Origin: a virus
Lineage: Duplodnaviria > Heunggongvirae > Uroviricota > Caudoviricetes
Length of the DNA stretch: 40,443 nt
Virus record (IMG/VR): IMGVR_UViG_2778261635_000003
Reading direction: 5' to 3' (one strand)
Under the pieces are notes generated by a model. The model was not told the DNA's origin. It did no database searches and saw only the letters and a program-made list of their open reading frames with translations. This document shows, in pieces, positions 17,226 through 20,318 of this stretch. A program made the position numbers and the translations under genes. Each line of letters begins with the position of its first letter. Position 1 is the first letter of the stretch.

Positions 17226-17807
17226 ATGACAACTCAAATTTCTGTTGAAACTCTCTCCCCGATCACCCATAACCAGATTCCTGTTATTACCACCGAACTT
17301 TTGGCGCAGCTTTACGGCACTGAGCCGGTGCGTATTCGCCAGAATCATCATGAGAACAAAGTACGCTTCGTTGAAGGGAAACACTTTTTCAAAGTTGTTG
17401 GTAATGACCTTAAAGAATTGCGGGTAGCTTTAAACTACTCACAAAATTTGCAACCATCTTTAAGAGGGTTACAAATTTCCCCGAAAGCCCGCTCCCTCAT
17501 CCTCTGGACAGAACGCGGAGCAGCCCGTCATGCCAAAATGCTCGAAACCGATCAGGCGTGGGATGTGTTCGAAAAACTGGAAGACTGCTATTTCAGTCAA
17601 AAGGATCCGTCAACGCCAGTTTCATGCCAGAAAAGTTACGACACGCGAGTTCTCTGTTATCAGCAAGGCGGTGTCACTGTTTCCACAATTCAGTTGCGGG
17701 ATGATGATATTGTTATTTCCCTTGAGTCATGGCTGGAACTGGCGAGAGCCAATGGTTGGTTTGTTGTTCGCAGAGATAAACTGGTGGAAAGGCTGATGCA
17801 GCTTTAA
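17226..17807 (+). CDS. ORF6N/Bro-N-type DNA-binding protein (antirepressor-like)
   Basis: 193 aa; N-terminal block IPVITTELLAQLYGTEPVRIRQNHHENKVRFVEGKHFFKV typical of the ORF6N domain. Confidence 0.6.
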   Translation: MTTQISVETLSPITHNQIPVITTELLAQLYGTEPVRIRQNHHENKVRFVEGKHFFKVVGNDLKELRVALNYSQNLQPSLRGLQISPKARSLILWTERGAARHAKMLETDQAWDVFEKLEDCYFSQKDPSTPVSCQKSYDTRVLCYQQGGVTVSTIQLRDDDIVISLESWLELARANGWFVVRRDKLVERLMQL

Positions 17808-17899: not shown

Positions 17900-17930
17900 C
17901 AGAACCCGCCATTGAGCGGGTTTTGTTGTT
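17900..17930 (+). terminator. Intrinsic terminator after the ORF6N gene
   Basis: Stem AACCCGC/GCGGGTT followed by TTTTGTTGTTT. Confidence 0.6.
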
Positions 17931-18040
17931 TCTGGTACTGGCGAACCTGATGTTTCATTTCTGGAGCGCGATTCCTGGCGGAATACCTGGAATCGAGACA
18001 TTCTGGTAAAATTGTTTTCAGTACAGGATGTGGAGGTGAG

Positions 18041-18610
18041 ATGAGAGAACTACCTAAAGATTATTTTTTAGGAGTAGATGATGAGCTCGTCGATTACCTT
18101 GAAAAACAAGGGGAAGAGACGATACGAGAGATTCATCTTTCTAACAAAACCAATGTTGAGAATGGATACAAACTTCTGAACATTCAGATTGTTGGAATTG
18201 GCTCATCTTTTTTATTGCTGACACAGAAAACTAATTTCGATTTTCTCACCGCTGGAATTACCACATTTACATTACTATGGACATGGTGCGCCATTTACCT
18301 GGTATGTACTGGTTTATCTGTGAAGGTTAGGGGCCTGATCAATGCCCCTCCTGATCATCTATATCATGAAAAATATAAGGATATGGTGCCCTCGAGCTTT
18401 AAAATATTCGCTGATGCAGGATATTTAGGACCTGATAAGTTATTGCCGCTTATACGAAGGTATCGCCTTGTTGACTTGAGTGATACAGCAAGAGAGTTAC
18501 TGTTGGAAAATGAGAAAATCCGTACGAGTCTCGATAAAGCAAGGATGTATACCATCCTTGCTCCGGTAGCTGCGATGTTTATCTCGGCTGTTTTTTTATA
18601 TGTTCAATGA
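18041..18610 (+). CDS. Hypothetical membrane protein (3 predicted TM helices), low-GC accessory gene
   Basis: 189 aa, RBS GGAGGTGAG; hydrophilic N-terminus, hydrophobic segments at ~45-61, 69-92 and 171-189; markedly AT-rich. Confidence 0.6.
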   Translation: MRELPKDYFLGVDDELVDYLEKQGEETIREIHLSNKTNVENGYKLLNIQIVGIGSSFLLLTQKTNFDFLTAGITTFTLLWTWCAIYLVCTGLSVKVRGLINAPPDHLYHEKYKDMVPSSFKIFADAGYLGPDKLLPLIRRYRLVDLSDTARELLLENEKIRTSLDKARMYTILAPVAAMFISAVFLYVQ

Positions 18611-18740
18611 CTGAGTCGGCAGAATCTCCAACAAAAACACGACGTGTAGCAAAGTCTGCAGTACTTTGTGTTGGAGTTGGTTTTGGTGCCACGGGTTGCT
18701 GAGGTTTATTTTCACCTTGTGGCTTGTTTTTTTCAGACAT
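18579..18740 (-). CDS. Hypothetical small protein (53 aa), convergent with the membrane-protein gene
   Basis: ATG with an AAGAGGA RBS; Pro/Gln-rich N-terminus; overlaps the 3' end of the 189-aa gene by 32 nt; below the ORF-track size cut-off from this start. Confidence 0.3.
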   Translation of the reverse strand: MSEKNKPQGENKPQQPVAPKPTPTQSTADFATRRVFVGDSADSVIEHIKKQPR

Positions 18741-18834
18741 AAAAATCCTCTTTGTTTGAATTGTTACTTTTGGCGATTTAACGATATCAAACACGAGTAT
18801 ATACCGCCAGAAGCTTAATCTGGCACTCCATCTG

Positions 18835-18859
18835 GCCCCGGCATGTCCCGGGGCTTTTT
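18835..18859 (+). terminator. Intrinsic terminator upstream of the lysis cassette
   Basis: Stem GCCCCGG/CCGGGGC followed by a run of five T. Confidence 0.5.
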
Positions 18860-18957
18860 CGTTGTTAGGCTCCGGAAACATCCTCGACTTCTTGTTAGTA
18901 AGCCTGAGAGCCTGAATCTTACACTTAGCACCATCCGAACTCTCGGAGGTGAGGCTT

Positions 18958-19299
18958 ATGAAAATGCACAATGCCCCTCATTCCTGGCCTGACTTACTGG
19001 AACTCTTACAAAGTTGGTGGCGTGGAGATACGCCGCTGGGCGCAGTGGTTATGTCAATTATTATGGCTGGTTTGCGCATTGCCTATTTTGGCGGTGGCGG
19101 CGGCTGGAAACGAAAAACGCTTGAGATTCTGCTTTGTGGTGCTCTGACGCTGACCTTTGCATCCGCGCTTGAGTATGTCGGATGGCCTAAATCACTTTCT
19201 GTTGCCATTGGTGGTGGGGTGGGGCTGATTGGTGTTGATGCTATTCGTGGTGCGGCAATGAGGGTCATCGGTAACAAGTTCGGTGCCCATAAGGAGTAA
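18958..19299 (+). CDS. Holin (dual-start MKM motif)
   Basis: 113 aa, RBS GGAGGTGA; MKM start like lambda S; hydrophobic segments and charged C-terminus; directly upstream of the endolysin. Confidence 0.8.
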   Translation: MKMHNAPHSWPDLLELLQSWWRGDTPLGAVVMSIIMAGLRIAYFGGGGGWKRKTLEILLCGALTLTFASALEYVGWPKSLSVAIGGGVGLIGVDAIRGAAMRVIGNKFGAHKE

Positions 19300-19302
19300 T
19301 TA

Positions 19303-19779
19303 ATGCAGACACTGAATTCCCAGCGTAAAGCTTTCCTTGATATGGTGGCATGGTCAGAAGGAACAGATAACGGACGGCAGAAAACCAGAAATCACGGTTA
19401 TGATGTTATTGTCGGTGGCGAACTGTTCACTGATTACTCCGATCACCCCCGCAAACTTGTCACGCTAAATCCGAAACTCAAATCAACAGCCGCCGGACGT
19501 TACCAGCTTCTTTCACGCTGGTGGGATGCCTACCGCAAGCAACTTGGCCTGAAAGATTTTTCTCCAGAAAGTCAGGATGCTGTAGCGCTGCAGCAGATTA
19601 AAGAGCGTGGCGCTTTACCGATGATTGACCGCGGCGATATTCGTCAGGCAATCGACCGGTGCAGCAATATCTGGGCTTCGTTGCCGGGTGCTGGTTACGG
19701 TCAGTATGAACATAGAATCGGTGACCTGATTGCCCGATTTAAAGAAGCTGGTGGGGTGGTAAATGAAGCTGAGATATAA
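19303..19779 (+). CDS. R: Endolysin, lambda R-type lytic transglycosylase
   Basis: 158 aa nearly identical to my memory of lambda R (NSQRKAFLDMVAWSEGTDNGRQKTRNHGYDVIVGGELFTDYSDHPRKLVTLNPKLKST...). Confidence 0.9.
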   Translation: MQTLNSQRKAFLDMVAWSEGTDNGRQKTRNHGYDVIVGGELFTDYSDHPRKLVTLNPKLKSTAAGRYQLLSRWWDAYRKQLGLKDFSPESQDAVALQQIKERGALPMIDRGDIRQAIDRCSNIWASLPGAGYGQYEHRIGDLIARFKEAGGVVNEAEI

Positions 19780-20155
19780 GCTGGTTATTGTTGCCTTCTT
19801 TGTTACCGTCATCGGTTCTTTCATCTGGTCTGCCGGGCATTACTACAACAAATATCAGCATGAAAAGGAGCGCGCTGATGAGGCTGTACGAAATGCTGAA
19901 TCAGCAACAGCCATTACCCGTAACGTCCTGCAATCACTGCAAATCATCAACACAGTTATAGAGGCTAACCAGCATGCAAAACAGCAGATCGCACTGGAGT
20001 CACAGAGAACCCAGGAAGATATCAAAGTGGCTGTTGCGGATGATGATTGCGCTGTTCGTATCGTTCCTTCTGGCGCAGTTAAGCGGTTGCACGAATACGC
20101 GAACGGTATACGTGTCGGTGCCGGTCGTTCCGTTACCAGCCAGCCTGACGGATGA
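19763..20155 (+). CDS. Rz-like inner-membrane spanin
   Basis: 130 aa; N-terminal TM helix (LVIVAFFVTVIGSFIW) then charged, helix-prone periplasmic region; overlaps the endolysin stop. Confidence 0.7.
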   Translation: MKLRYKLVIVAFFVTVIGSFIWSAGHYYNKYQHEKERADEAVRNAESATAITRNVLQSLQIINTVIEANQHAKQQIALESQRTQEDIKVAVADDDCAVRIVPSGAVKRLHEYANGIRVGAGRSVTSQPDG

Positions 20156-20318
20156 AACACCCCAGCCAGATTTACCCGACCCGTTTACGTGGGGAGCCAG
20201 CCTTAACCTGAATGTTGCGTTGTTGTCAGCGTTAGCACAGTGCAACAGGGATAAGGCTGATATCAGGACTTTTGAGAAAAACAGGGCAGCACAAACCAAT
20301 GGCACGATTAAACGTTGA
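20040..20318 (+). CDS. Rz1-like outer-membrane lipoprotein spanin
   Basis: +1 frame within and beyond Rz; signal peptide with lipobox LSGC; Pro-rich mature region; start choice (20040 or 20043) uncertain. Confidence 0.5.
   Translation: MMIALFVSFLLAQLSGCTNTRTVYVSVPVVPLPASLTDETPQPDLPDPFTWGASLNLNVALLSALAQCNRDKADIRTFEKNRAAQTNGTIKR

Follow-up and report, generated by a model that had tools for sequence, protein, structure and literature searches.

Introduction

In phage phi80 the defence gene of the Tai/Ati system lies antisense to the Q-dependent late operon and overlaps the counter-defence gene of that operon (He et al. 2024, PMC11364771). This is the nearest architectural analogue of the gene pair described here, which occupies positions 18041–18862 of a 40,443-nucleotide (nt) stretch of viral DNA (IMG/VR record IMGVR_UViG_2778261635_000003; the whole stretch is called the window below) and consists of a plus-strand gene for a 189-amino-acid (aa) protein with three predicted transmembrane helices (TM1–TM3) of the inner membrane (18041–18610) and a convergent minus-strand gene for a 53-aa hydrophilic protein (18579–18740). 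Both are two-gene prophage modules in a Q late unit, with one gene antisense and overlapping (a 'non-contiguous operon') and with lysogenic and lytic expression coupled, for the present pair putatively so. In phi80 the large protein TaiEcA (orf63) is encoded antisense, the overlap is 5'-5' and the module follows the lysis genes, whereas in the present module, which stands ahead of the holin gene, it is the small gene that runs antisense, the two coding sequences overlap 3'-3' and the larger product is a membrane-embedded protein. Homology was considered and rejected: BLASTP and hhalign against TaiEcA and AtiEcA gave no significant alignment.

SieB of phages P22 and lambda, with its sas antisense RNA, is reportedly an abortive-infection membrane protein, the gene of which lies antisense to a lytic operon; for the resident phage it is said to be neutralised by an antisense-RNA-dependent switch in the early left operon, Esc being an in-frame truncated sieB product. 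The likeness lies in a prophage membrane protein with antisense wiring; the differences are the early-left location and the fact that Esc is not encoded by a separate convergent gene. RexA/RexB of lambda is a two-protein lysogen exclusion system with a polytopic inner-membrane protein, and the small gene of distant relatives of the present pair occupies the rex position (3' of cI, same strand). RexB spans the membrane with four helices, its companion RexA being a large sensor of the cytoplasm; the two are co-transcribed with cI and not convergent, and the present membrane protein differs in its three helices and convergent partner. It has no Pfam match at E ≤ 1, a further difference from RexB, and hence none to the SieB model if the library holds one.

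With hok/sok the pair would share a membrane-active toxin and a cis antisense transcript with stem-loops; a type I toxin, however, is a hydrophobic peptide of <60 aa with a non-coding RNA antitoxin, whereas here a 189-aa protein is faced by an antisense transcript coding for a hydrophilic protein under selection. The proteins behind the PycTM and CBASS '2TM effector' models are small membrane effectors, the action of which in abortive infection is lethal to the cell; they are stand-alone proteins of ~160–200 aa with a cytoplasmic helix running into a TM hairpin, and a few distant members of the present family match them, but the partner here is a small convergent protein and not a signalling enzyme. 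Gp15 of HK97 is a small inner-membrane protein encoded as a moron in the late (tail) gene cluster (Cumby et al. 2012, as cited in PMC11364771); beta-proteobacterial relatives of the pair likewise occupy tail clusters, and the difference, as far as the citing paper goes, is that gp15 is a single gene with no convergent partner.

Nothing in the pair is categorically new in kind; its family and its wiring are not described in the resources searched. The reading adopted tentatively, with somewhat less than even confidence, is that of a mobile toxin/antidote-like module: a membrane effector would be held in check by the small protein made in the lysogen, and convergent transcription would flip the balance.

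The gene pair and its conservation

The window is an E. coli lambdoid prophage with 100% identity across the region to strain S163-2 (NZ_CP058709); related sequence was found in 315 of 5,426 complete E. coli genomes (~6%), 223 of which have most of the region. The initial annotation was borne out in each of its elements and considerably strengthened by comparison between loci. Both open reading frames (ORFs) were recovered: the 189-aa frame, preceded by a GGAGG Shine–Dalgarno (SD) sequence at 18032–18036, and on the opposite strand the 53-aa frame in its ATG form, the strong ribosome-binding site of which is AAGAGGA (18746–18752), 5 nt ahead of the ATG at 18740. The coding overlap is tail to tail and amounts to 32 nt on both strands (18579–18610), as had been annotated.

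Partners were sought at nine genome loci, on eighty viral contigs and in several assemblies. The 91 loci yielded 53 distinct pairs, and each of the 53 has a convergent small ORF preceded by an SD sequence, the sole apparent absence being due to N in the sequence; in the other direction, the membrane gene was present at all 48 small-ORF loci with enough sequence to test. The pairs span Enterobacterales, Pasteurellaceae, metagenomic prophage contigs and Betaproteobacteria, and reach identities below 20%. The overlap is kept at 20–35 nt in Enterobacterales; three distant relatives have overlaps of 71, 158 (Alcaligenes, L191) and 41 nt (Pandoraea, L192, the small ORF of which starts 'MSNSKNPVPNPQP...'). 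Overlapping genes were also found in the distant relatives L016, L018, L020/L021 and L102, and at two loci only, L017 and the Pasteurella locus L104, do the genes abut with no overlap. By these counts, which go far beyond chance, the membrane gene and the small gene are an obligate, ancient pair.

The 53-aa protein (phrog_14506) is rich in Lys, Pro and Gln and hydrophilic (maximum 19-residue hydropathy 0.28), with a net charge of +3 and the motif DF..R..VGDSA(D/E); the small ORFs share the pattern MS..NKP..E.KPQ...KP.P...DF..R..VGDSA...KK, and across the family the median net charge is +4. The protein is mostly low-complexity, only ~12 residues forming the conserved motif, and evolves faster than its partner (identity ~30–40% against ~50–60% for the membrane protein). 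In close pairs the ratio of non-synonymous to synonymous change (pN/pS) was 0.10–0.25: window against Leclercia, 9 synonymous and 5 non-synonymous changes (pN/pS 0.16); two Trabulsiella ORFs, 11 and 4 (0.10). Synonymous sites are saturated (pS 0.5–0.9), and SD, start codon, frame and C-terminal motif are kept in all loci. Because pN/pS is low and only the last 20–35 nt overlap the partner, the small ORF is a real protein-coding gene under purifying selection, and its constraint is not borrowed from the membrane gene. Selection and co-inheritance in 53/53 pairs thus bear out the convergent ORF as a genuine partner gene.

The annotated length of the small gene varies with the source (53, 71, 100, 128 and 130 aa); across taxa only the 53-aa core and its SD are conserved, and the N-terminal extension of the 71-aa RefSeq form (GTG start) was rejected, its frame not being conserved (L002, L007). 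In the E. coli clade the small ORF opens with an A7 run (ATG TCT GAA AAA AAC; 18726–18732, minus-strand codons 3–5), which is not conserved in other genera; one viral contig (L176/L042) carries a frameshift at this run with the membrane gene intact, which may stem from a sequencing error or reflect on/off variation through slippage. A 1-base-pair (bp) deletion at 18590, inside the overlap, was met in at least five complete E. coli genomes; the last TM3 residues of the membrane protein are rewritten (190 aa), the stop of the small ORF is lost and the ORF extended, and RefSeq annotates one gene only.

The membrane protein (phrog_11870; RefSeq WP_001208723, 'hypothetical protein') has the three hydrophobic helices that had been annotated, located by hydropathy and AlphaFold2 at residues 45–62 (TM1), 68–93 (TM2) and 169–187 (TM3, at the extreme C-terminus); the hydrophilic N-terminus, put at ~45 aa, corresponds to residues 1–44, which are acidic (net charge −5). 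The AlphaFold2 model (38-sequence alignment; predicted local distance difference test score, pLDDT, 82) has long helices at residues 14–62, 68–92 and 134–188. Since a 75-residue basic cytoplasmic segment separates TM2 from TM3, the three TM helices are not contiguous; the periplasm-facing loops are of 5 residues (the outer loop of the TM1–TM2 hairpin) and 2 residues. Model, hydropathy and charge indicate a probable topology of acidic cytoplasmic N-terminus, TM1–TM2 hairpin, basic cytoplasmic segment and C-terminal TM3. TM1 is weakly hydrophobic and Gly/Ser-rich, with an invariant G-x-G-S-S motif; the N-terminal domain is acidic throughout the family, with a median net charge of −7.

Homologues of the membrane protein formed 104 clusters, nearly all of 189 aa, across Enterobacterales; a profile search of 1.8 billion representatives gave 101 relatives, down to ~20% identity, and a further search with the divergent alignment reached Alcaligenes, Pandoraea and Pigmentiphaga (Betaproteobacteria), with no annotated relatives among its results. 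Damage to the membrane gene, by truncation, frameshift or insertion sequence, is common (e.g. L007, L008 and P0033); at L007 the frameshifted membrane gene stands beside an intact small ORF, and a broken small ORF beside an intact membrane gene was met in one case only, at the A7 run. A 53%-identical variant of the membrane protein is carried by Actinobacillus phage vB_Apl-pPE4 (PP818812; recorded host Actinobacillus) and by the E. coli plasmid record CP100067; the late-regulatory region of the phage is E. coli-like (hok, DUF1367/DUF1364/DUF1133-like genes, ORF6N, then the cassette), and a TerB-domain gene sits between cassette and holins.

Mobility and orientation

Four kinds of prophage slot were found to hold the pair: between Q and the holin gene, with at least three holin families (lambda-S-type, holin_2 and others); directly 3' of the cI/XRE repressor gene, with the small gene co-directional, in three independent metagenomic lineages (L016, L018, L020); in the early region of a Pasteurella prophage (L104), near toxin-antitoxin genes; and inside the tail-gene clusters of Alcaligenes and Pandoraea. 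Judged by these contexts the pair occupies at least four different slots, a behaviour typical of morons. It was seen in prophage or phage contexts only, with the exception of one distant relative on a 1.4-kb metagenomic contig, beside a glycosyltransferase gene.

A sister E. coli prophage has a different convergent pair (76 aa and 92 aa) between these flanks; the slot therefore exchanges cargo. The cassette thus combines flanking terminators, a deviant base composition (GC 0.406 over 18041–18862 against 0.489 for the whole window, in line with the AT-rich composition first noted) and replacement between otherwise collinear phages, which are the marks of a moron. The initial proposal of a horizontally acquired, insulated two-gene module is strongly supported by the cargo swap, the other slots, the terminators and the low GC.

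In the late-operon slots (Q–holin interval and tail clusters) the membrane gene shares the direction of the lytic genes, to which the small gene is opposed; without exception the small gene either opposes the lytic operon beside it or points the same way as the repressor gene. On this regularity of orientation rests, above all, the proposal of a small protein of the lysogenic programme and a membrane protein favoured by lytic transcription.

Regulatory elements

Both flanking terminators of the initial annotation were detected by a terminator scan on the plus strand. The first (17900–17925; −16.1 kcal/mol, z = −4.2) closes the upstream isrK–ORF6N unit and insulates the module on its 5' side; a terminator directly 5' of the membrane gene was found in nearly all aligned loci. 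The second (18834–18860) consists of a hairpin (18834–18855) with an 8-bp GC-rich stem, followed by a T-run; its stem covaries across loci and is part of the minimum-free-energy (MFE) fold, the 118-nt stretch that contains it (18745–18862) having −38.2 kcal/mol and z = −4.1. It is predicted to end plus-strand transcription of the module ahead of the holin gene.

A putative weak or extended −10 element of the 189-aa gene (TGG-TAAAAT, 18004–18012, plus strand) was recognised by conservation: 'CATTCAGGTAAAAT' is kept ~30 nt 5' of the membrane-gene start in most of 30 aligned loci (18007–18012 in the window). Pantoea and Morganella lack it, their membrane genes following directly on a terminator. 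The TAAAAT element has no good −35 partner and went undetected in a consensus promoter scan; by its conservation and position the element may be the membrane-gene promoter.

Upstream of the small gene lies a conserved non-coding block (18754–18792; near-invariant at 18763–18789), which is a candidate promoter and/or leader of the small gene. It occurs once in the window, its conservation exceeds that of either coding sequence, and it contains a covarying hairpin with an outer stem GTTTGA (18754–18759)/TCAAAC (18787–18792) and an inner stem GTTA (18763–18766)/TAAC (18779–18782); compensatory changes are GTTA/TAAC to GTTG/CAAC or GTCA/TGAC, and TTTGA/TCAAA to TCTGA/TCAGA. On the minus strand the block has a TGnTATCGT −10-like element (18781–18789) with no convincing −35, and the consensus scan was negative here as well. 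For the plus-strand RNA alifold gave −16.3 kcal/mol against −1.25, but in a count over 41 unique sequences the plus strand was preferred only slightly (13 sequences to 7, the other 21 being ties); the hairpin may act in the minus-strand leader, in the 3' UTR or late transcript of the plus strand, or in both. The block matches no Rfam family. A second conserved hairpin, GCCAGA-N7-TCTGGC (18806–18824), lies between block and terminator in the MFE fold; at other loci its two arms covary (e.g. TGCCGC/GCGGCA in Trabulsiella).

By exact matching, 85 viral contigs were found to contain the block, always 30–35 nt 5' of a minus-strand ATG, the genes being of differing kinds: the small protein of this pair, a 92–94-aa family, a 67–68-aa zinc-ribbon protein, and proteins of 148, 165 and 170 aa. 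Because it heads unrelated genes, the block is regarded as a shared promoter and/or leader for antisense cargo before lysis cassettes. Cargo other than the pair was seen under it at nine loci, in the same pre-lysis slot; the 92–94-aa family begins MASFTVRVELVG... and has its own convergent partner of 61–76 aa, the zinc-ribbon protein begins MSKVNFKCPGCG..., and for the 92-aa protein and its 76-aa partner no Pfam match was found. The pre-lysis slot gives the impression of a hot spot where antisense cargo shares one expression cassette. In a Klebsiella/Citrobacter-like clade (L054–L059) the post-block terminator is replaced by what appears, by eye, to be the 5' half of a tRNA gene (GCCCTTTAGCTCAGTGGTTAGAGCG...), so that the right-hand boundary of the slot differs there.

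Homology searches

Neither protein of the window has a match in Pfam, NCBIfam or PADLOC or among solved structures, and both fall in PHROG families of unknown function. For the membrane protein, a profile search of PDB sequences gave noise only (E > 0.4), and tblastn against 50,697 phage genomes gave five records, none of which is P22, lambda or HK97. Literature searches by accession and by related descriptions found no characterisation. The initial annotation had left room for an already known lysis protein (holin, antiholin or accessory); the membrane protein is none of these, since scans of Pfam, NCBIfam and PHROG returned no lysis family, and association with one lysis cassette is not constant, the pair standing next to several holin types and also beside cI and in tail clusters.

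All 63 divergent family members match phrog_11870. One of them matches PADLOC PycTM at 1.5e-8 and two match the CBASS '2TM effector' at 4e-5, and a few match weaker models; for P0199 the match to the 2TM effector (0.0022) extends over residues 43–135. This similarity is the sole functional lead and may reflect a shared effector architecture. No nucleotide cyclase or CD-NTase gene was found in the neighbourhood in the window or at any related locus with called genes; the family is therefore not a Pycsar or CBASS component. Weak Pfam matches of distant members (8xMP, DUF6249, YLATT and others) were set aside as looking like noise of transmembrane composition; two apparent domain fusions (P0165, P0195) were rejected, since their long profile matches are repeat proteins, and no domain fusion of the family was found. 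The topology and remote-homology searches that had been suggested at the outset thus gave the three-TM layout, and no match to a known function beyond the weak PycTM/2TM lead.

Genomic setting

Upstream of the module lie a Q-type antiterminator gene (DUF1133, 16404–16955), a sigma-70-like promoter (16952–16981), the predicted start of which coincides with the isrK match, and Rfam matches to c4-a1b1 targets (16975–17027), isrK RNA (16988–17064; 75.5 bits) and C4 antisense RNA (17090–17173; 66.7 bits), followed by an ORF6N anti-repressor-like (anrP-like) gene (17226–17807), the unit being closed by the 17900–17925 terminator. The cassette at 16952–17807 is the E. coli counterpart of the Gifsy-1 antQ-isrK-orf45-anrP-isrJ locus; Rfam matching found no isrJ at its 3' end. 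In Gifsy-1 the Q-responsive late promoter is that of isrK, and transcripts as a rule end at the IsrK and IsrJ terminators (PMC4825925). With terminators of this type, plus-strand transcription from upstream should stop short of the module in the lysogen. From established Q biology, Q-modified polymerase would cross the module into the lysis genes. The module had been placed between the Q-controlled late promoter and the holin gene; this position stands, with the correction that the isrK/C4 RNA and ORF6N cassette intervenes between the Q-like gene and the module.

Downstream, the holin gene (18958–19299; lambda-S family, the frame at 18949–19299 matching Phage_holin_3_1) is followed by a GH24 endolysin and spanins. 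The spanin pair overlaps: a 130-aa Rz-like ORF with an N-terminal TM helix (19763–20155) and a 114-aa LysC/Rz1-like ORF (19974–20318), which runs past the end of the former; the identical RefSeq record calls LysC only, the Rz-like ORF being uncalled. A hokD type I toxin gene is annotated ~3 kb upstream of the module (2901–3056 of L001, equal to ~14800–14955 of the window) and adjoins the sharpest GC dip of the region (0.33, 15050–15349); hokD is another small membrane-toxin module in the same prophage.

Discussion

The following course of events is proposed for the pair as a moron. The 189-aa protein would be anchored with its N-terminus in the cytoplasm, the acidic helix and the basic pre-TM3 helix forming a stalk on a three-TM bundle, and would act as a potentially lethal, pore-forming or depolarising effector; the 53-aa protein, cytoplasmic, basic and largely disordered, would be made in the lysogen and antagonise the effector, probably by binding to its acidic cytoplasmic domain. 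With convergent, overlapping genes, either transcription would hamper the other and the two mRNAs would be mutually antisense. The small gene would be expressed in the lysogen from the minus-strand block while the flanking terminators hold plus-strand transcription low; in a lytic sweep, Q-modified polymerase from the isrK/pR' promoter would raise the membrane protein and lower the antidote. The trigger would be induction of the own prophage or trans-activation by a related incoming phage, and host shut-off would shift the balance likewise, as the labile small protein decays; the envelope would be compromised, with abortive infection or exclusion, or reinforced lysis, as the outcome.

The charges of the two proteins are complementary (median −7 for the N-terminal domain, +4 for the small protein) and the decay is asymmetric, the membrane gene often being broken and the small ORF once beside an intact partner; both of these, and the invariant G-x-G-S-S motif of TM1, would fit an effector and its antidote. 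Strict co-occurrence, complementary charge and asymmetric decay lend indirect support to a type II-like antidote; the convergent layout is atypical of type II operons. An abortive-infection or exclusion role is suggested by the architecture, the orientation rules and the weak PycTM/2TM similarity. Also in favour of the proposal are the obligate pairing over large distances and four slots, the coding nature of the small ORF, the moron features and, as a precedent for antisense wiring of defence and counter-defence in a Q late operon, Tai/Ati of phi80.

Several findings weigh against this proposal. The membrane protein of the window matches no defence, toxin or holin model; Foldseek against viral models gave nothing with E < 0.29, and fold searches yielded generic long-helix bundles. 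The PycTM/2TM similarity is confined to 3–4 of the 63 members, all distant, and scores of this kind can be raised by the composition of membrane helices; two batches of ten proteins did not reveal which member matches PycTM. The block ahead of the small gene, being shared with unrelated cargo, says nothing specific on this pair. Finally, the Pantoea and Morganella loci fit a role in the lytic cycle at least as well as defence of the lysogen, because no promoter can be recognised there for the membrane gene itself, which stands like a usual first late gene.

The last point leads to the first of two serious rivals, which is considered unlikely, though not greatly so: the membrane protein would be a late or early-lytic accessory of the lytic cycle that may tune the holin or the timing of lysis, block superinfection or re-adsorption while lytic growth is under way, or counter host defence, the small gene and antisense RNA serving to silence leakiness. 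The membrane gene is indeed co-directional with the late genes, just 5' of several holin families or in tail clusters, the Pantoea and Morganella copies stand behind the post-Q terminator and lack a promoter-like element, and the weakly hydrophobic, Gly/Ser-rich TM1 recalls pinholin helices. Pinholins have conditionally membrane-embedded helices. The pair, however, is also found beside cI, outside late operons, and its occurrence with unrelated lysis cassettes and in tail clusters shows independence of any single lysis system; the membrane protein matches neither holin nor antiholin families, and most loci have the conserved −10-like element and the flanking terminators that are typical of autonomously expressed morons.

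The second serious rival, for which the probability is judged to be low, reverses the polarity in the manner of Tai/Ati: the small protein would be the lysogen effector, blocking a host or phage function that incoming phages need, as the small protein DicB does, and the membrane protein would sequester it in the lytic phase. The defence gene of phi80 is antisense to the Q late operon, with the counter-defence gene within it, and the small gene here holds the antisense position; its upstream block recurs before further antisense cargo genes that stand alone, and distant relatives carry the small gene downstream of cI. Against this, the small protein is mostly low-complexity, evolves much faster than the membrane protein (~30–40% against 50–60% identity) and is conserved in a motif of ~12 residues only; it is, moreover, never found without the membrane protein, which is unexpected for an autonomous effector, and neither protein is homologous to Tai or Ati.

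It is improbable that the membrane protein serves lysogenic conversion, directed at the host (envelope stress, colonisation or resistance), with the small gene as a cis-regulator. The Q–holin interval classically holds conversion genes, the morons bor and lom encode envelope proteins, and nothing in the sequence points specifically to an anti-phage role; the near confinement of the pair to prophage and phage contexts, with one distant exception, the very different hosts (Enterobacterales, Pasteurellaceae, Burkholderiales) and the want of a periplasmic or surface domain, the periplasmic loops being of 5 and 2 residues, speak against it. That the product of the small ORF is irrelevant, convergent transcription and antisense RNA alone being the regulators, agrees with the covarying RNA/DNA hairpin and terminator of the region and the largely low-complexity protein, but is very improbable given the kept start codon, SD, frame and C-terminal motif and the pN/pS of 0.1–0.25 at pS 0.5–0.9.

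Conclusion

Under the toxin/antidote reading it is possible, rather than probable, that the pair is an unrecognised and widespread prophage toxin/antidote or abortive-infection switch, its antidote gene wired tail to tail and antisense to the gene of the membrane toxin, that takes lytic transcription, by the resident prophage or by a trans-activating intruder, as its trigger and hops among at least four hot spots in Gamma- and Betaproteobacteria. As a corollary, block 18754–18792 would be a portable expression cassette for a set of antisense cargo genes before lambdoid lysis cassettes.

The cassette is present in ~6% of complete E. coli genomes and in many prophages of Enterobacterales, Pasteurellaceae and Burkholderiales, both proteins being annotated as hypothetical only, and among the chief sources of new anti-phage systems and toxins are prophage cargo slots. 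Should the membrane protein prove a regulated lethal effector, the pair would be a compact two-gene addition of ~0.8 kb to the repertoire of defence and toxin-antitoxin systems, short enough as a construct to be easy to test, and, after Tai/Ati, would be a second independent case of late-operon antisense wiring that distinguishes the lysogenic from the lytic state. The shared block flags further unexplored antisense cargo of such prophages: the 92-aa family with its convergent partner, the 67-aa zinc-ribbon protein and the proteins of 148–170 aa.

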